The position numbers were made by a program, and so were the translations under genes. 64,000 nucleotides of DNA, taken from contig CAWGRW010000009.1 in assembly GCA_963825135.1 (NCBI GenBank), positions 1,824,001 through 1,888,000 of the forward strand, given 5' to 3'. This DNA comes from an uncultured bacterium. GTDB lineage: Bacteria; Desulfobacterota_D; UBA1144; Nemesobacterales; UBA2774. Shown in pieces: positions 43,544-51,134 of the stretch. The notes under the pieces are model-generated. The model saw only the letters and a program-made list of their open reading frames with translations. It searched no databases and was not told the origin of the DNA. The stretch's first letter is position 1; every line of letters begins with the position of its first letter.

Positions 43544-44770
43544 ATGACAATTTGCTATGTGACGCATTCGGCTCCCTGCGGTAAGGGTGAGGCCTTCATT
43601 GTTCAGGAAATAATTGAAATGAAAAAATATTTTCAAGTCGTTATAGTACCGATAAGACCGATAGGTGCGCCACAATACGAAGATGCACAACTCCTGGTGA
43701 AGGATTCGATAATATTGCCGTTGCTCAATATCAAAATCATTGCTTGTTTCATCTTAACAATTCTTACAAACCCTTTTCTAGTCATCAGTAACTTAATTAG
43801 TCTTATATCTGAAAGCAAATCTATGAAAGTATTCCTAAGGAATCTATGCATATTACCGAAAGCATTTTATGTTACGCGAGTATTAAAAGACAAGAAAATA
43901 CGGCACATCCATGCACATTGGTCATCGATCCAGGCTACATTTGGATTGATTGTTGCAAAGAATTTAGGTATTGATTTCAGTTTTACCGCACATAGGTATG
44001 ATATTGAAGAAAACAATATGCTCGGAAAAAAAGTATTAGAATCTTCTTTTGTCAGGACGATTTCAGAAATGGGTAAAAATAAGATTATTCGTCTTGCCAA
44101 TCCGGTGCAAGCGGATAAAAAGATCCATGTGATTCATATGGGGGTCGAAATCCCGCGATTCCACAGCGTGCCGAACAGCGAGAACACCGTTCCGATTATT
44201 GCATGCCCGGCAAACCTGGAAGAAGTTAAGGGCCACAGGTACTTGGTTGAGGCTTGCGCTATATTAAAATCAGCAGGATTAAAATTTCAATGTTTAATTA
44301 TCGGCACCGGCTCTCAACATCGCAGCATACAGAATTTAATTGAGAATAAGGGGCTTGAGAACGAGGTTTCGTTAGTGGGCTATTACCCGCACAGCAAGTT
44401 AATGGAATTGATGAAAAATCATGTTGCGGATATTGTTGTCTTGCCCAGCATCACTACGAAAGACGGTGCTTGTGAAGGAATACCTGTAACTTTGATGGAG
44501 GCAATGAGTTTTGGGATACCGGTCCTGTCGACAAGAACAGGCGGGATACCGGAACTTCTTCGGGAAGGCGGAGGGATCATGGTCGAAGAAAAAGATTCCA
44601 ACGCAATTGCGCAAGGAGTGCTCAAAATTTTAAGTGATGAAAATTTGAGAAGCAAATTAGCGAAATCAGGTTATGAGACAGTCAGTAATCATTTTAATAT
44701 CACTAATACCTGCAAAGAACTTTCATCCTTGATACAAAAGTATTGTACGAATGGAAAGTACCAACATTAG
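43544..44770 (+). CDS. GT4 glycosyltransferase (WcaL-like)
   Basis: HIHAHW, SFTAH.YD, EVKGH and EGIPVTLMEAM; ATG 43544 after GGAGG. Confidence 0.9.
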   Translation: MTICYVTHSAPCGKGEAFIVQEIIEMKKYFQVVIVPIRPIGAPQYEDAQLLVKDSIILPLLNIKIIACFILTILTNPFLVISNLISLISESKSMKVFLRNLCILPKAFYVTRVLKDKKIRHIHAHWSSIQATFGLIVAKNLGIDFSFTAHRYDIEENNMLGKKVLESSFVRTISEMGKNKIIRLANPVQADKKIHVIHMGVEIPRFHSVPNSENTVPIIACPANLEEVKGHRYLVEACAILKSAGLKFQCLIIGTGSQHRSIQNLIENKGLENEVSLVGYYPHSKLMELMKNHVADIVVLPSITTKDGACEGIPVTLMEAMSFGIPVLSTRTGGIPELLREGGGIMVEEKDSNAIAQGVLKILSDENLRSKLAKSGYETVSNHFNITNTCKELSSLIQKYCTNGKYQH

Positions 44771-44787
44771 AGGCGGCACTGCTGATA

Positions 44788-45426
44788 TTGAGAAGAATAC
44801 GAATTAACAAGATCTTCTACCTGCTTGCCTCGGCAATCGTCATTCTCTTTTTTAGCTGCCAGCAGGTTAAGGAGATTCCCGACAAAATCCCCGACCAGCT
44901 CCCTAACCCCGTGAAGGACTTTACTGAAAAGGATGATTATATTGTCGGGCTCAACTGGTATAAGCAGTTGAACTATCAAATTGCCGCTAAGTTCTGGAAG
45001 CCCCTTGCAAAGGAGGGCGACTGCGACGCCCAGTATGCTCTCGGTTTATTGTATTTCGAAGGCCTGGGAGTCGGTCAAAGCTTTGACAAAGCGATATATC
45101 TATGGACCCGGTCCGCCGACCAGGGCCAGGCTCAGGCCCAGATCAGCCTGGGTATTGTATATTCGAGATTGAGTCTGCCCTATACCTCACTCGATTGTAG
45201 AAGAGGGTGCGGCCAGGAAAAAGACCCTTTAAAAGCATATAGATGGTTCGGTATCGCGGGTGAGATCGGCTCCCCTCACGAAATGCAGGTTGCTCAGGAT
45301 TCGCTAAAGAAAATAGTCGTGGAAATGACACCCGAGCAGATTAAGGAAGGGGATGCGCTGGTTGATTCCTGGAAACCGGACCCGACCCGCTGCGACACCC
45401 GAGGTATCTTCATTGTAGCCCCGTAA
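44788..45426 (+). CDS. Sel1-like repeat lipoprotein
   Basis: Signal with FFSC lipobox; AQYALGLLY..G.GV..S..KA, SADQG...AQ..LG and KAYRWF repeats; start codon uncertain (TTG 44788). Confidence 0.82.
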   Translation: MRRIRINKIFYLLASAIVILFFSCQQVKEIPDKIPDQLPNPVKDFTEKDDYIVGLNWYKQLNYQIAAKFWKPLAKEGDCDAQYALGLLYFEGLGVGQSFDKAIYLWTRSADQGQAQAQISLGIVYSRLSLPYTSLDCRRGCGQEKDPLKAYRWFGIAGEIGSPHEMQVAQDSLKKIVVEMTPEQIKEGDALVDSWKPDPTRCDTRGIFIVAP

Positions 45427-45513
45427 TATCTCTTAATCCGTCATTCTTGCGACAGACCCGCCGGTTGAAAACATAAGCCAAATGATCATTTACTCTCGAT
45501 TTCATTTACATAC

Positions 45514-45541
45514 TTGACAACCTGTTTGAGTCTGTTATTAT
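45514..45541 (+). promoter_or_regulatory. Sigma70 promoter
   Basis: TTGACA (45514-19), 16-nt spacer, TATTAT with an extended TG. Confidence 0.6.
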
Positions 45542-45544
45542 GAT

Positions 45545-45566
45545 ATTGAAAATGATAATCAATACG
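45545..45566. promoter_or_regulatory. Fur-type box 1
   Basis: ATTGAAAATGATAATCAAT imperfect palindrome; 45548-45566 matches 15/19 of GATAATGATAATCATTATC; overlaps the expected TSS. Confidence 0.75.
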
Positions 45567-45649
45567 TATAAAGCTTCTTCGTGCTGATTAGTCGAGGATG
45601 GGGGTTATTTCTAGATACGCCTTTATTAACAAATGCAGGGAGGTTATCT

Positions 45650-45877
45650 ATGGGTTTCATGTGCGATTCCGATAAACCAATGGTCCTTTCGTCGTCGAAT
45701 ATAGGCAATATATCAAAATGCGGATGCTGTAATTTTTATCATCTCAACATAGGGAACGTTACACTCAGACTGGAGCATAAATATCTACTGACCCTAACGC
45801 AGATGATAATTGATGCTCTCGAGATTAACTCTGGCATACAGCGTGAATTTAGAAGACAACTCCGGAATCAGGCTTGA
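45650..45877 (+). CDS. Small Cys-rich protein (75 aa; resembles DUF6686-type proteins)
   Basis: GGGAGG RBS; MC...KCGCCNFYHLNIGNVTL; lies directly behind a Fur-boxed promoter. Confidence 0.7.
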   Translation: MGFMCDSDKPMVLSSSNIGNISKCGCCNFYHLNIGNVTLRLEHKYLLTLTQMIIDALEINSGIQREFRRQLRNQA

Positions 45878-45906
45878 ATACATTTGATCCGGTCGGATTA
45901 CTCCCT

Positions 45907-45964
45907 GGAGAAGGGCGGCCCCATGAATTAATGGTCCTATTACCTTAGCTAGCCGCCCTTCTCC
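45907..45964. repeat. Perfect 13-bp inverted repeat (terminator or stabilising hairpin)
   Basis: GGAGAAGGGCGGC (45907-19) / GCCGCCCTTCTCC (45952-64). Confidence 0.8.
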
Positions 45965-46161
45965 TTCTAAAATAATATTGAGTCAGGCTGGATGTGGGAT
46001 CGAGCCTAAAGTGAGATATGAGCATGAATCCATAAACCTGCGGACTGTCAGGCGAGGCAAAATACTTGCCCGCATCTCTCTGACATCGCCCCAGGTCGAT
46101 TAAGGTTCTGCTCATCCGGATTCTCAGGGGTCTAAAAATAATGATTATGAAATTCATTGTC

Positions 46162-46189
46162 TTGACAAAATCCGTGTTCTGGGTATGTT
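46162..46189 (+). promoter_or_regulatory. Sigma70 promoter of the porin operon
   Basis: TTGACA (46162-67), 16-nt spacer, TATGTT (46184-89). Confidence 0.6.
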
Positions 46190-46193
46190 GAAT

Positions 46194-46214
46194 TTGATAA
46201 CGATTATCAATACT
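46194..46214. promoter_or_regulatory. Fur-type box 2
   Basis: TTGATAA-CGA-TTATCAA with perfect arms; 46196-46214 matches 14/19 of the Fur consensus; lies at the TSS. Confidence 0.8.
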
Positions 46215-46233
46215 AAACCAGGAGGTGTGAAGG

Positions 46234-47793
46234 ATGGGTGAATTATTCATATGTTTCAGCGTTCGTTCGTTACGTTTGACGTTACTTCCTCTCTTTATTG
46301 TTTTGGTCTTATTGGCGTCGTCCGATGTCTTCTCGGAAGAATCGACTCAAGATCAGCCGGGGACGTCCCAAGGTTCCGACGTTTACCAAAAAATCAGGGC
46401 TCCGAAATCAGAAGCCGGCAATAAAAATACCGTAGTAGCTCAGAACAAGAGCGGTGTTCAGAACCAATCCCAGGATCAGAGGATTCAGGACCTGGAAAAT
46501 AAATTAAAGGGCGTAAGCGACGAGCTCCAGCAGCTTAAAGCCCAGGGGATTCCCGATGACAGGCTAGAGGCTATAGAACAGAAGCTGAGCGTACTCGCTG
46601 AGGAAATCGACAATATCAAGCAGGTATCCGTTGTTCCCGAGCCCACATATGAAAAGATGTTCGGGGCGGGCCCGGCTGCGTCTAAGGTCTATCTCTCGAA
46701 CAAGGGCTTATCCATCGGGGGGTACGGCGAGTTGTTGACGGGTCAGGCCGTTTTCGACGGGGATAATACCGTAGATACGCAGAGGGTCGTGCTTTATTTC
46801 GGTTATAAATTTACCGACAGAATTATTTTCAATTCCGAAGTAGAATTCGAGCACGCCTCCACGGAACTTAACGTCGAAGGATCGGAGGGCTCCGTTTCTG
46901 TCGAATTCGCCCTCCTCGATTTCCTTCTGGCGAAGGAAATAAATCTCCGCGGCGGGCTCCTGCTCGCTCCTTTCGGGATAATCAACGAGGTTCATGAGCC
47001 CACGACATTCTTCGGGGTTTTCAGGCCGGGGACGGAGCTGTTCGTCATTCCCACTACATGGAGAGAGAACGGTTTAGGCATTTTCGGAGACATCGATCTT
47101 AACAAGGCGGGTAATCTCAGCTATAAGGCATATGTAATGAGCAGCTTCGACGCCAAGGGGTTCATAGCTTCAAGCAACAGAGGCATCAGGTTCAATGGGA
47201 CCGAGGCCTCGTTCAACGACGTTGCGTTCGTCAGCAGAGCGGAATATAACCCTGTCCCCTATCTGACGGTGTCGGGTTCCGTATTCCTGGGCAATACCGG
47301 GCAGGGAGCGACTGTGGACAATCCGACGTCCGAGTTTAACGGACAAAAGGTTAAGGGATTCTTCCAGATGTATGAAGGGGACATCCAGTTTCAGTACGCG
47401 GGGTTTGAGGGCAGGGCGCTCGCAGTATTTACAAGGCTCGATGAAGCCGCCCTCATAAACGCGTTAAACGGGTTTGTCGGGGATGAGTCCGTGGGCAGCC
47501 AGCAGTGGGGGTACTATGTTGAAGGAGGATACAACGTCCTCACGCTCGCGAACTTCACGAGTCAGTACTTACAGTACCTGTCTCCGTTCGTCAGATGGGA
47601 TGCCTTCGATACCCAGGCGCATGTTCCTTCCGGGTTCGAGCGCGACCCCGCCAACAACAGGAAAGACCTGACGATAGGAATAAACTATAAACCTATCCCC
47701 CAGGTCGTCGTGAAAGCGGAGTATCAGTGGCTCGACGACAATGCCGGAGAGTCTCAGAACCAAATTAATTTCGGCCTTGGATACGTATTCTAA
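46234..47793 (+). CDS. Outer-membrane beta-barrel porin with N-terminal coiled coil
   Basis: Signal peptide, heptad region, SIGGYGE, NSEVEFEH, HEPTTF, IPTTWRE and terminal beta-signal FGLGYVF. Confidence 0.82.
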   Translation: MGELFICFSVRSLRLTLLPLFIVLVLLASSDVFSEESTQDQPGTSQGSDVYQKIRAPKSEAGNKNTVVAQNKSGVQNQSQDQRIQDLENKLKGVSDELQQLKAQGIPDDRLEAIEQKLSVLAEEIDNIKQVSVVPEPTYEKMFGAGPAASKVYLSNKGLSIGGYGELLTGQAVFDGDNTVDTQRVVLYFGYKFTDRIIFNSEVEFEHASTELNVEGSEGSVSVEFALLDFLLAKEINLRGGLLLAPFGIINEVHEPTTFFGVFRPGTELFVIPTTWRENGLGIFGDIDLNKAGNLSYKAYVMSSFDAKGFIASSNRGIRFNGTEASFNDVAFVSRAEYNPVPYLTVSGSVFLGNTGQGATVDNPTSEFNGQKVKGFFQMYEGDIQFQYAGFEGRALAVFTRLDEAALINALNGFVGDESVGSQQWGYYVEGGYNVLTLANFTSQYLQYLSPFVRWDAFDTQAHVPSGFERDPANNRKDLTIGINYKPIPQVVVKAEYQWLDDNAGESQNQINFGLGYVF

Positions 47794-47876
47794 ATCTGGT
47801 TAAATATAGCTTCCGGTGGGGGCGCGGCAGCCGGGACTCTGCGCCCTCATTATATTCGGACCCTCATGTCAATGAT

Positions 47877-48434
47877 ATGAAAACCGTATTCATTATTTTT
47901 CTCTGCCTGTTTATTTTTTCCACAGGCGCTCAGTCGAAAGTATTTATGAAAAGGGATGAAGCTCTTAAGGTTGCGTTCCCGGACGCGGACAGGATAGAGA
48001 AAAAGGATATCTTCCTCACCGATAAACAGGCGGAAGAAATTGAGTCGCTTTCGAAATCCAGGCTCAGTACCAGGCTGTATATTGTCTACGAAGGTGTTAA
48101 GGGGGATAAGGTCCTCGGATATGCTATAATTGACACGCACACTTTGAGGACTAAAACGGAAACGGTCATGTTTGTAATTAACACGGACGGCACACTGAGG
48201 CAGGCTGAAATTCTGGCTTTCTTTGAACCCCCCGATTATATGCCCGTTGACAACTGGATTGCTCTATTTTACGGGAAAAGTATCGGGGACTCACTTAAAC
48301 CGGGTAAAGATATACCAAATATGACAGGCGCTACGATAACATCCAACTCGCTGGCCCAGGCAATCCGGCAGATTCTTGCGCTTGCCAGAGTTGCTGTGAT
48401 TGGCGATGGAGCGGGAAACCGTACAGAGGAATAA
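47877..48434 (+). CDS. Exported FMN-binding domain protein
   Basis: Signal peptide ending AQS; PNMTGATITS contains the [S/T]GA[S/T] flavinylation motif. Confidence 0.82.
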   Translation: MKTVFIIFLCLFIFSTGAQSKVFMKRDEALKVAFPDADRIEKKDIFLTDKQAEEIESLSKSRLSTRLYIVYEGVKGDKVLGYAIIDTHTLRTKTETVMFVINTDGTLRQAEILAFFEPPDYMPVDNWIALFYGKSIGDSLKPGKDIPNMTGATITSNSLAQAIRQILALARVAVIGDGAGNRTEE

Positions 48435-48924
48435 TTTGCGATTCTTTATTTCCCCGGATATAAGAAAAAATTCACTTTTAAGACTCATAGTGGTCTTCAC
48501 AGTTCTTTTCTTCGTTTTGTTATGGGTTACCGATCTCCTCTTGTATCTCCAGATCGGCTTCAGCTACGACTCCGTAGTCGAGTATTACAAGGGCTCGGAA
48601 GCTAATTTCAGGCCCCCGAAAAGCTATCTCGGCATGCTTGAAGAAGCTCATTTCCACTTCTTTTCGATGGCCGTAATACTAGTGACCCTCAATCATTTGA
48701 TGCTATTCACAGCCCTGGGGAATTTCTGGAAGCTCTTGCTAATCGTTTCTTCGTTTTTATCAGCCCTTGGCGATATTGCGGGAGGATGGCTTATTAGATA
48801 CGTGAGCCCGGATTTCGCCTACCTGAAGATCGCATCGGTCTTGGTCCTACAGGCTTCCCTGGCGGCCCTTATGATTATTGTTATCCTGTATCTATACAGT
48901 GCACGCAAGGATTCTAACCCGTAA
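48406..48924 (+). CDS. Four-TM inner-membrane protein, possible b-type heme binder
   Basis: Four hydrophobic segments; EEAHFHFFSMAVILVTLNH has His residues 13 apart within one helix. Confidence 0.7.
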   Translation: MERETVQRNNLRFFISPDIRKNSLLRLIVVFTVLFFVLLWVTDLLLYLQIGFSYDSVVEYYKGSEANFRPPKSYLGMLEEAHFHFFSMAVILVTLNHLMLFTALGNFWKLLLIVSSFLSALGDIAGGWLIRYVSPDFAYLKIASVLVLQASLAALMIIVILYLYSARKDSNP

Positions 48925-49196
48925 TTTATTTTCCCTCACCTTTCCCGTGGGTCATTCTGCATCTTCTCTCTAGCAATAATCAAATAATTAATAAATCATC
49001 GCAGACGCTTAAAATAATATTCATAGTTAGAAAACGCCCTGACTAATCTTGTCACGAATAAGCGATTGGTGACAAAATCTGACAATTTGGGTTCCAGGCT
49101 CGAATAATAGATGACATTTTATGGCATGTGAATGTCTATGTGATATTGGATACTTGTCTTCTAATATTTAAGACCATTATTTAAGTTTCAACCAAC

Positions 49197-49212
49197 TGGT
49201 ATGAAGATTGCA
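49197..49212 (+). promoter_or_regulatory. Sigma54 (-24/-12) promoter
   Basis: TGGTAT-GAAGA-TTGCA gives GG-N10-GC spacing, about 40 nt upstream of the riboswitch. Confidence 0.6.
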
Positions 49213-49250
49213 AGTAAGAGTTATATGTAAAAAGATTTAACTAGGCGAGT

Positions 49251-49349
49251 CCTAAACGATAATGGCAAACCATCCGAAAGGGTGGGACGCAAAGCCTTCG
49301 ACCTAAGTGCTGAGAAATCAGCATATGGTGGCCGGGTTACCGAAATAGG
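49251..49349 (+). ncRNA. c-di-GMP-I (GEMM) riboswitch
   Basis: GGCAAACCATCC-GAAA-GGGTGGGACGCAAAGCC...CCTAA...GGTGGCCGGGTTACCGA: GNRA loop, receptor and conserved GACGCAAAG core. Confidence 0.93.
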
Positions 49350-49467
49350 AAGATTGGTTCTAACCTGAGTATCTTTCCTATGTTGTTCTAACCTGCCTGC
49401 TGATAGCAGGGTCGAATGGAATGCTTCCCTCGAAAGGGTGGTCAAGCCTGAGAAAGGAGGCATTCAA

Positions 49468-51134
49468 ATGAGAGGTTCGACCAAATCCATCACATTTCAC
49501 GTTTTGCTTGCAGTGACTATTCTGTCCCTTTATAGTCCGATGAACTCCCATGCGTCACTCTTCTCCGGATCCTCCATGTCGTCGGGTGGTTCTTCCACTC
49601 CGTCCGGAAGCTCTAAATTACCTCCCGGCACTAAGTATTATTCGATTCAAGATACCTACGTTGATCAGCGAAAAACGAACCTGAGCTTCGGTTCAAATTC
49701 CACTATTCAGATTAAATCCAGAAGTAGCCAGGTGAAGCAGGGACTCGTTAAATTTAACATTTCCGGAATCCCCGCAGGCGCCAAGATTACAAAGGCGACG
49801 ATATCACTATATGTCGCAAAAAAGAGCGGATCCGGCAATTCGGTGGCTGTTTACGAGGCTCTCGGAAACTGGAACAGATCTACGACCTGGAACCAAAAAC
49901 CTCCGATTGCCTCTTCGAGTGAAGCGAGTATGTCCGTTAGTAAAACCGGAAGTTACTACAATATGAGTGTTACAGGCCTGGTTCAGGATTGGGTAAATGG
50001 AACTGAGGAAAACAATGGAATATATGTTGTTGCAAGAAACGGAGAAATGTACTTTTACAGCGGAGAAAGCAAGAAGAACAAACCGGTTTTGACCGTTGAG
50101 TATACAAAAGGTGGACCGTCCGCGACGCCCGCTCCGACACCGGTCCCGTCGCCCGCTCCGACGCCGGCCCCGACGCCCGCACCGTCCCCCGCTCCGACGC
50201 CCGCTCCAACGCCCGCCCGACGCCCGCTCCAACACCGGCCCCGGACACGATAAAAGTCGGGGATAAGGTTGTGGAACCCGGCCAGTCCATACAATCGGCC
50301 ATCGGCGCTGCGTCAAGCGGACAGACCGTCTGGGTTAAATCCGGTACCTGGACCCTAAACGCACAGCTTGTAATGAAATACGGGGTAAGCGTTAAAGCCT
50401 ATCCGGGAATGGAGGCATACGATTGGGATACCGACACCATTAATCCGTCCCACCCGTACATCATTCCGGGCACCTGTTCGCATTGTGGTATAAGATGGGA
50501 ACGAGGTCAGGGAAACAATGAGTTCTCGGGGTTTGAAGTTGCCGGCGGGTATTCCGGCATAGATATCCATGCCGACAACGTGATCGTGAGCGACAACTGG
50601 ATTCACGATACCGACTATACGAGTATATTCATAGCGAGCTCGAGTAATATTCTGGTCGAGCACAACAAAACGGAGCGTGACGGACAGCATTGTGAAGGAT
50701 GGACGAATCCAAATGACGGCACCCAGATAAGCCCGCGTCACTGCCATTCCGTTTACTTGAGCAACGTCGCCGGTTACTGCGGCATGACGAATGTTACGGT
50801 CAGGGAAAATTACCTGTCGGATTCAGGGGGCAGCGCGGTGAATTTTAACGGTGATGACTGCGCAAAAGCCGGCGATCAACTCATATCGAATACCCTGATC
50901 GAGCTCAATACGATAGTGGATGTGAAGGTAGGACCCGCTCTCTGGCACGGCACCACCGGGACTGTAATAAGGGATAACAGTATCACGATCCAGCATCCGT
51001 ACACACCTCCGGGCGCCACAAATGATTTGCCTAGCGGAATGATGTGCGGGATAGTGGCCTGGGATGAAGCGCCGACTAAGTCGGGTAATACCTTTGACCT
51101 CAGGGCTGATTATCAACAGTTTTGCCAATATTAG
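49468..51134 (+). pseudogene. Secreted DNRLRE/CBM96 + Pro/Thr linker + right-handed beta-helix protein, split by a 1-nt deletion (555 aa if restored)
   Basis: AAGGAGG RBS and signal peptide; DTYV..NLSFG, VKFNIS.IP..A.I..ATISLY, TWN..P, VTGLVQDWV..NNG and P.L.VEY motifs; one base missing at about 50216 joins ORF 49468-50253 to ORF 50271-51134. Confidence 0.85.
50124..50243 (+). repeat. Degenerate 12-bp tandem repeat encoding a (T/S)PAP linker
   Basis: About 10 copies of ACGCCCGCTCCG-like units, one of them only 11 nt. Confidence 0.9.

Follow-up and report, generated by a model that had tools for sequence, protein, structure and literature searches.

A porin, flavoprotein and PF27139 membrane protein module with Fur-type boxes: a candidate reductive iron-uptake system

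It is poorly understood at the level of genes how Gram-negative bacteria that lack siderophores reduce iron and bring it into the cell. A locus from an uncultured bacterium of the Desulfobacterota_D (GenBank assembly GCA_963825135.1, contig CAWGRW010000009.1) raises the question of whether a porin, an exported flavoprotein and a small membrane protein, encoded side by side behind boxes of the Fur type, could together do this work. The locus occupies positions 45,514 to 48,924 of a stretch of 64,000 nucleotides (positions 1,824,001 to 1,888,000 of the contig), here called the window, and the genome that holds it is 3.13 Mb in size and 94% complete. By the names of its homologues the genome is Dadabacteria-like (Candidatus Dadabacteria / Thermodesulfobacteriota). 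We lean, if only slightly, towards the view that the module is an iron-starvation-induced periplasmic ferric reductase that would feed Fe(II) importers encoded in trans.

Genes, regulation and conservation of the module

The open reading frames (ORFs) give three module genes of 519, 185 and 172 amino acids (aa) on the forward strand (Table 1), where an original prediction from the DNA letters had set an outer-membrane barrel, an exported protein with a TGAT motif and a protein with four transmembrane (TM) segments behind the second of two promoters. The barrel is borne out by the signal peptide and C-terminal Phe of the first protein and by the Atlas clusters of its homologues, which are named porin and have PF07396 on 19-47% of their members. 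PF07396 was not found on the window porin itself by Pfam scan, and 5 of 26 homologues match it; the protein has an N-terminal coiled coil and belongs to a distant OprO/OprP-like family. Several Glu and His residues, in the first strands, are conserved (E202, E204, E206, H207, E224, H254, E255 and E278), which fits, without showing, a channel for cations or metal chelates. Sequence searches of the solved structures gave no relative of the porin, the flavoprotein or the membrane protein.

The 185-aa protein matches the FMN_bind profile (PF04205) with 28.4 bits against a cut-off of 22, and its gene is the sole FMN_bind gene found in the genome. Export is read from the N-terminal hydrophobic segment. 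The TGAT motif is indeed at 48324-48335, and its second Thr, T153, is at the position which we take from NqrC and RnfG to be that of the acceptor of flavin mononucleotide (FMN). This position is Ser or Thr in 114 of 118 homologues, with the strict [ST]GA[ST] motif in 77 of the 118. The exported protein is predicted to be an ApbE substrate that carries FMN on T153. An apbE acting in trans had been called for, and the genome has a single ApbE, outside the window and about 300 kb from the module (C9:1571800-1572792). The apbE gene stands directly 5' of ribBA- and ribH-like genes, which resemble genes of riboflavin synthesis, and a nusB-like gene (G000:C9:1571800-1575174), the names being read from the sequences.

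The third product, an inner-membrane protein, belongs to PF27139 (Aq_1264_TM). Most homologues in this family start at an RFFIS motif, which here corresponds to the TTG at 48436 with AGAGG 6 nt upstream, and because of this the membrane-protein gene probably abuts the flavoprotein gene rather than overlapping it. Of the overlapping four-TM protein of the original prediction, the four long helices are seen in the structural model (predicted local distance difference test, pLDDT, of 76), and the overlap is probably absent.

Two TTGACA-N16 promoter-like sites are present as described, with 11 and 10 of 12 consensus matches, though such hexamers alone are within chance (12 in positions 44000-50500 against 8.7+/-3.1 in shuffles). 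The Fur-type palindromes said to lie at the start sites are found there and are above chance. Each palindrome starts 5 nt past the -10 hexamer and therefore spans the inferred start site, and the two are the only 7-1-7 matches of at least 13/15 within the window. In a genome scan for 17-bp palindromes, with a threshold of at least 13/16 to the consensus, 29 sites were found. The porin box alone reaches 15/16, and the four sites at 14/16 are the upstream module box and the sites before fur, exbB-exbD-tonB and imelysin-DHOR. A matrix trained on the fur, exbBD-tonB and imelysin-DHOR boxes, with the module boxes excluded, was scanned over the 3.13 Mb and places the module boxes second (23.5) and fifth (18.6) genome-wide, so that these two and the three training boxes make up the five top sites; the next site scores 15.8, and a weaker one before feoA scores 12.8. 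The genome has four Fur-family genes. The boxed one, at C9:2434578-2435042, which answers the suggestion that a fur gene be sought, is best matched by the iron Fur model of NCBIfam and the other three by PerR, all of these matches being below cut-off. Upstream of the porin gene the box beats all 30 shuffles at 23 of 37 loci of the host phylum and at 28 of 63 loci of other phyla, and at loci where apbE leads the operon a similar site is often found before apbE. That the same box precedes fur, exbBD-tonB and imelysin-DHOR, and recurs before the module in other phyla, strengthens the interpretation as Fur sites, and iron regulation of the module through these boxes is well supported by inference. 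Another near-perfect palindrome (G000:C9:1148100), which precedes a Fur-family gene followed by cbiM/cbiQ/cbiO-like genes, is likely the site of a nickel or cobalt regulator.

The module is close to core in the whole uncultured phylum, with the membrane gene in 93 of 120 genomes. Among 40 loci fetched from those genomes, about one per genus plus extras, the flavoprotein gene is present in 39, the porin gene in 38, apbE in 25 and FTR1 in 9. A scan of a genome collection for other phyla gave at least 564 confirmed of 600 pattern matches, and the best 80 were analysed. These come from Binatota, Myxococcota, Tectomicrobia, Bdellovibrionota, Methylococcales and others, and have the flavoprotein in 79, the porin in 68 (45 of 47 full-length loci) and apbE in 44. 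Across the 120 loci examined, where neighbours were labelled by single-seed searches, the membrane gene adjoins the flavoprotein gene in 118. The co-conservation of the three genes elsewhere, on which the original prediction depended, is thus found. In five gammaproteobacterial and related genomes with no apbE at the locus, ApbE is encoded elsewhere in all five. Cultured carriers are Methylobacter tundripaludum SV96 and Methylobacter svalbardensis.

Some neighbours of the module handle iron. An iron gene (fur, feoB, FTR1, bacterioferritin, imelysin or DHOR) is present in 27 of the best 80 loci. In two Dadabacteria families, FTR1 is found no farther than 11 kb from the module in 31 of 32 genomes and in 8 of 14 genomes, respectively. 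Placed on a quickly built tree of 119 membrane proteins (the 120th was excluded as too short), the iron-gene neighbours change 15 times, in several separate clades, and at least six of these changes are forced by well-supported branches. The gammaproteobacterial loci have haem-enzyme neighbours (CCP_MauG, SoxA-like).

Some loci are arranged differently. Two loci of one Dadabacteria genus (L042 and L067, in genomes G002 and G004) have a divergent module with about 26% identity in porin and flavoprotein, the order porin-flavoprotein-apbE-membrane gene and a very long branch, and it is possible that this is a replacement from another lineage. At L069 (genome G052) the porin gene points in the opposite direction to its flavoprotein and membrane-protein neighbours. 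In small marine-type genomes of family f9 (L058-L066) a conserved exported helical protein of 116-137 aa, without Pfam match, is encoded next to the module, frequently in the gap that separates the membrane gene from FTR1.

Histidines and fold of the membrane protein

PF27139 is an uncharacterised family. The original prediction had spoken of a His pair in the membrane protein, but three His are conserved, H82, H84 and H97, all in the second TM helix. A homologue search returned 532 proteins at E<=0.001, and His were counted among the 150 matches listed. In single-unit proteins H82 is found in 101 of 113, H84 in 105 of 111 and H97 in 103 of 113 of those covering the column; E79, which adjoins H82/H84, is conserved in 103 of 113. 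Other homologues consist of two repeats, and in two clusters of these the named members are Aquificota. Their first repeat always has H82 (23 of 23) and no longer has H84 or H97; their second repeat has H84 and H97 in 23 of 23 and H82 in three only. Such complementary loss is what is expected if H82 and H84 form a site shared between subunits, because a symmetric oligomer has several sites and a fused form needs one. The distribution of His thus points to a bis-His site made of H82 of one subunit and H84 of the other, the occupant of which would most likely be haem b. By the positive-inside rule, this site would be near the periplasmic face, beside the flavoprotein. H97 is deeper than this site and is opposite a small residue in repeat 1.

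For the two-repeat protein the model is a confident one, with a pLDDT of 90.5 and a predicted template modelling score (pTM) of 0.86. Of 15 two-repeat loci, 13 have the flavoprotein gene immediately before the two-repeat gene and two begin at a contig edge; a porin is found in seven. No extra single-unit gene was seen near the two-repeat gene at these 15 loci, which suits a self-contained pseudo-dimer. Four Aquificota-type two-repeat loci (L199, L203, L205 and L206) carry, between the porin and flavoprotein genes, an additional gene for 513-583 aa; its product has a possible haem-c motif and gave only a weak match, to cytochrome P460. Fusions were seen among the 24 longer PF27139 homologues that were scanned: with ApbE in four, with PilZ in one (P0148) and with DtxR-C/FeoA in one (P0206). 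No relative of the membrane protein was found in the viral contigs and plasmids scanned, and a first metagenome scan with one two-repeat protein as query gave no matches.

Single-unit proteins of haem-copper-oxidase (HCO) homology have reportedly been described by Pei et al. 2014. These and the MAPEG proteins share with PF27139 the four helices, an HxH in helix 2 (compare helix X of COX1) and a cofactor site between subunits, which for PF27139 is a prediction. Neither the single-unit nor the two-repeat model had a significant match in fold searches (Foldseek E 0.097-0.9; Z 7.0-7.8, root-mean-square deviation 3.2-4.9), a negative that says nothing on whether the fold is new. The weak matches are to oxidase subunit I, NOR, several MAPEG proteins and styrene oxide isomerase, and also to many helical bundles. 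According to PMC11374702, styrene oxide isomerase is trimeric and holds haem b between its subunits through one His, and MAPEG trimers are said in PMC4602095, with a citation of Pei et al. 2014, to resemble the oxidase core. The two-repeat PF27139 loci, with no third unit nearby, fit a dimer better than a MAPEG-like trimer. Homology to the HCO repeat could not be shown: hhalign gave a probability of at most 1.6%, equal to that of reversed controls, where a control of repeat 1 against repeat 3 gave 95%. In a helix-window scan the HxH register shared the top rank, with a z of just 3.1. The COX1 helix II His had been expected to align with the leading His of the HxH in helix X, and hhalign placed it on the second. 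As the fold scores are within the noise of helical bundles and the profile comparison failed, we treat the HCO/MAPEG fold as a lead and keep the protein outside that family.

Proposed mechanism and its alternatives

We propose that low iron would lift Fur from the module boxes and that Fe(III) species would enter through the porin. Menaquinol would reduce haem bound between membrane-protein subunits, at the H82/H84 bis-His site near the periplasmic face, with a second site at H97. Covalent FMN, attached to the exported protein by ApbE, would carry electrons across the periplasm to Fe(III), and the Fe(II) would be imported by FeoB here and by FTR1 or ZIP in other carriers. The genome has the menaquinone genes of the futalosine pathway. 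For the Fe(II) permease the original prediction had looked to feoB or FTR1 in trans: FeoAB is present, outside the module, while neither FTR1 nor ZIP gave a match in the 94%-complete genome. The larger proposal of reductive iron uptake survives in part. It is favoured by the co-conservation of the genes, by ApbE and FeoAB in trans and by the iron-type boxes, and disfavoured by carriers without iron neighbours or without FTR1 or FeoB.

Several observations weigh against a ferric reductase. Permeases of the FTR1 type usually work together with an oxidation of Fe(II), the opposite direction, and a cytochrome c-FTR1 fusion is the commonest permease adjacent to the module. The electron step from menaquinol to a covalently bound FMN may be energetically uphill. 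None of the known cytochrome families showed a sequence link to the membrane protein in 58 homologues at Pfam E<=1. At 82 of 119 loci, among them every one of the 33 in the gammaproteobacterial clade, iron genes are absent to a distance of about 6 kb, and the Methylobacter loci are mostly without a clear box. Three small module genomes of 90-94% completeness (G101, G103 and G109) gave no FTR1 or FeoB match, two of them having a ZIP transporter, and six genomes of one family have FTR1 but gave no match to the module. The host genome itself has two TonB-dependent receptors and the boxed exbBD-tonB operon, so TonB independence of the module is not required.

It is unlikely, in our estimate, that the module is instead an iron-sparing route, in which the flavin carrier would replace periplasmic c-type cytochromes or feed extracellular electron transfer. 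The Fur-type boxes indicate just low-iron induction, an interchange of flavins and cytochromes has been proposed in PMC8238504, and the gammaproteobacterial loci have the CCP_MauG and SoxA-like neighbours and not iron genes; four two-repeat loci, moreover, have the extra gene of about 550 aa with its possible haem-c motif. Such a route would leave unexplained the near-constant porin and the repeated gain of different iron importers and storage genes, and a haem membrane protein would save little iron.

A shade less probable is a reversed flow, with Fe(II) oxidised at cytochrome c-FTR1 and the flavoprotein and membrane protein draining the electrons into the quinone pool. Normally an FTR1 permease receives its iron from a partner oxidase, and the fusion stands beside the module in one family (31 of 32 genomes) and at the locus L103. 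This genome, however, has FeoAB and no FTR1 match, feoB is found at other loci, and the covalent FMN carriers of this family are of low potential.

We give the same small probability to a haem-free membrane protein whose His would bind a metal ion directly, the protein being an Fe(II) permease or a metal-handling subunit. The family's failure to match any cytochrome is what would be expected of it, as are the conserved E79 beside H82/H84, the module in genomes without FTR1 or FeoB match and the single fusion with DtxR-type metal-binding and FeoA domains (P0206, one sequence). But the flavoprotein would then be left without an electron source, a dedicated permease has been added at many loci, the split of H82 and H84 between the repeats fits two axial ligands, and the 13-residue spacing of H84 and H97 on one helix is typical of dihaem b proteins. 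Very unlikely is a role with another metal or solute (Mn, Ni, Zn, or flavin to supply ApbE), controlled by another regulator of the Fur family. The four Fur-family genes and the remote relation of the porin to anion-selective OprO/OprP could speak for it, but the box that the module shares is found at classical iron genes and at the iron-type fur, and the palindrome at the Fur-family gene next to the cbiM-like transporter is of another kind (12.8 against 18.6-23.5).

As a ferric reductase the module would have known counterparts. Flavinylation clusters with haem membrane proteins and iron transporters are known, and the PepSY-like/MsrQ-like systems of Meheust et al. 2021 (PMC8238504) and Huang et al. 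2024 (PMC11334425) share with it ApbE, an exported flavinylation substrate and a His-bearing membrane protein. Some of them are Fur-repressed and lie by Fe(II) transporters, and assimilatory iron reduction has been proposed (same sources). The membrane part of our module is PF27139, in contrast, with no match to PF03929, PF16357 or PF01794 in 58 members, its constant partner is a porin and not a TonB receptor, and no NAD(P)H-binding domain was seen; the words 'porin' and 'barrel' are absent from the text of PMC8238504. Membership in the PepSY-like, MsrQ-like, NapH-like, DsbD or DUF4405 systems was rejected, as none of these families was found in the 58 homologues at E<=1. The module likely resembles the PepSY-like/MsrQ-like iron-reduction systems in its working and differs in its membrane family and its constant porin.

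Other comparisons concern single parts. DUF4405 and FezC, described in PMC11334425, are small flavinylation-associated membrane proteins whose conserved His have been shown to bind haem b, and FezC is modelled there to form haem sites by homodimerisation. PF27139 differs in having no DUF4405 Pfam match, in bearing HxH...H on one helix and in the asymmetric split of His in two-repeat forms. The P19/FTR1 clusters of PMC8238504 share an FMN-binding protein tied to an FTR1 permease in some lineages; in our genome FTR1 has no match, and the module adds the conserved porin and a dedicated membrane protein. RnfG and NqrC have the same PF04205 domain and motif as the module flavoprotein, which differs in its cleavable-looking signal. 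An RNF/NQR subunit was rejected for it (TIGR01947 23.8 against a cut-off of 102; neighbours a porin and PF27139, not rnf or nqr). We found no paper that describes the module, in a search blind to subscription papers, and the large cluster table of PMC8238504 may list such loci.

We tentatively speculate, and consider it rather improbable in this full form, that PF27139 proteins are unrecognised minimal membrane cytochromes, with haem clamped between H82 of one subunit and H84 of the next, possibly a free-living single repeat of the HCO/MAPEG fold, and that with a dedicated Glu/His-lined porin and a covalently flavinylated shuttle they perform siderophore- and TonB-independent reductive iron uptake. 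If this were true, the machine would be at work in lineages that range from Aquificota through Dadabacteria, Binatota and Myxococcota to the gammaproteobacterial methanotrophs, and even streamlined genomes of 1 Mb would have retained it. As for the module in general, it would add a membrane electron-transfer family to the partners of ApbE flavinylation and give PF27139 a function. The module has three nameable, testable parts, and the partition of the His pinpoints the exact residues for mutation.

Other features of the locus

The first promoter, P1, serves a gene of its own for a 75-aa Cys/His protein, a correction to the original prediction. The protein matches PF20391 with E=1.3e-4, below the cut-off, and is possibly metal- or Fe-S-binding. 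Its gene is present in 13 of the 40 phylum loci and 4 of the 80 others, and relatives of it are near bacterioferritin/imelysin genes in Binatota. The stem 3' of this gene is a possible terminator or RNA-stabilising hairpin, and the hairpin between the porin and flavoprotein genes may set transcript stoichiometry. A 101-aa antisense ORF (45945-46250), without Pfam match, was taken as spurious.

Table 1. Positions in the window of the module genes, their candidate control sites and neighbouring features
Feature	Position	Strand	Basis or remark
Promoter P1, sigma-70-like, TTGACA-N16-TATTAT, extended -10 (TG)	45514..45541	+	11/12 consensus matches only
Fur-type palindrome 1, over inferred P1 start site	45546..45562	.	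leave-out matrix rank 5 genome-wide
75-aa Cys/His protein gene (CxCCxxYH), weak DUF6686 match	45650..45877	+	ribosome-binding site 45638-45643
13-bp GC-rich stem 3' of small gene	45907..45964	+	RNA fold, without shuffle control; no call by terminator scan
Weaker third Fur-like site, abutting P2 -35 on its upstream side	46143..46161	.	15/19 to the 19-bp Fur consensus
Promoter P2, TTGACA-N16-TATGTT	46162..46189	+	10/12 consensus matches
Fur-type palindrome 2, over inferred P2 start site	46194..46210	.	15/16; best palindrome of the genome; matrix rank 2
Porin gene	46234..47793	+	519 aa; signal peptide, C-terminal Phe
GC-rich hairpin between porin and flavoprotein genes	47816..47850	+	RNA fold, without control
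Exported FMN_bind (PF04205) gene	47877..48434	+	185 aa; profile match, N-terminal hydrophobic segment
T150-G-A-T153 flavinylation motif	48324..48335	+	sequence read
PF27139 Aq_1264_TM membrane-protein gene	48406..48924	+	ORF; likely start TTG 48436
Codons for H82, H84 and H97, second TM helix	48649..48696	+	alignment of homologues

Directly upstream of these features is a Sel1-repeat lipoprotein-like gene (window 44743-45426, forward strand), which is syntenic in 9 of the 40 phylum loci; no link to the module was shown. On the other side, a c-di-GMP-I riboswitch (RF01051, 77.8 bits; window 49254-49344, forward strand) lies 5' of the genes for an exported CBM96 protein and beta-helix proteins. 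The CBM96 protein has a Pro/Thr-rich tail, and an ORF that ends at 50253 and the next one, which starts at 50271, may be a single frameshifted gene.

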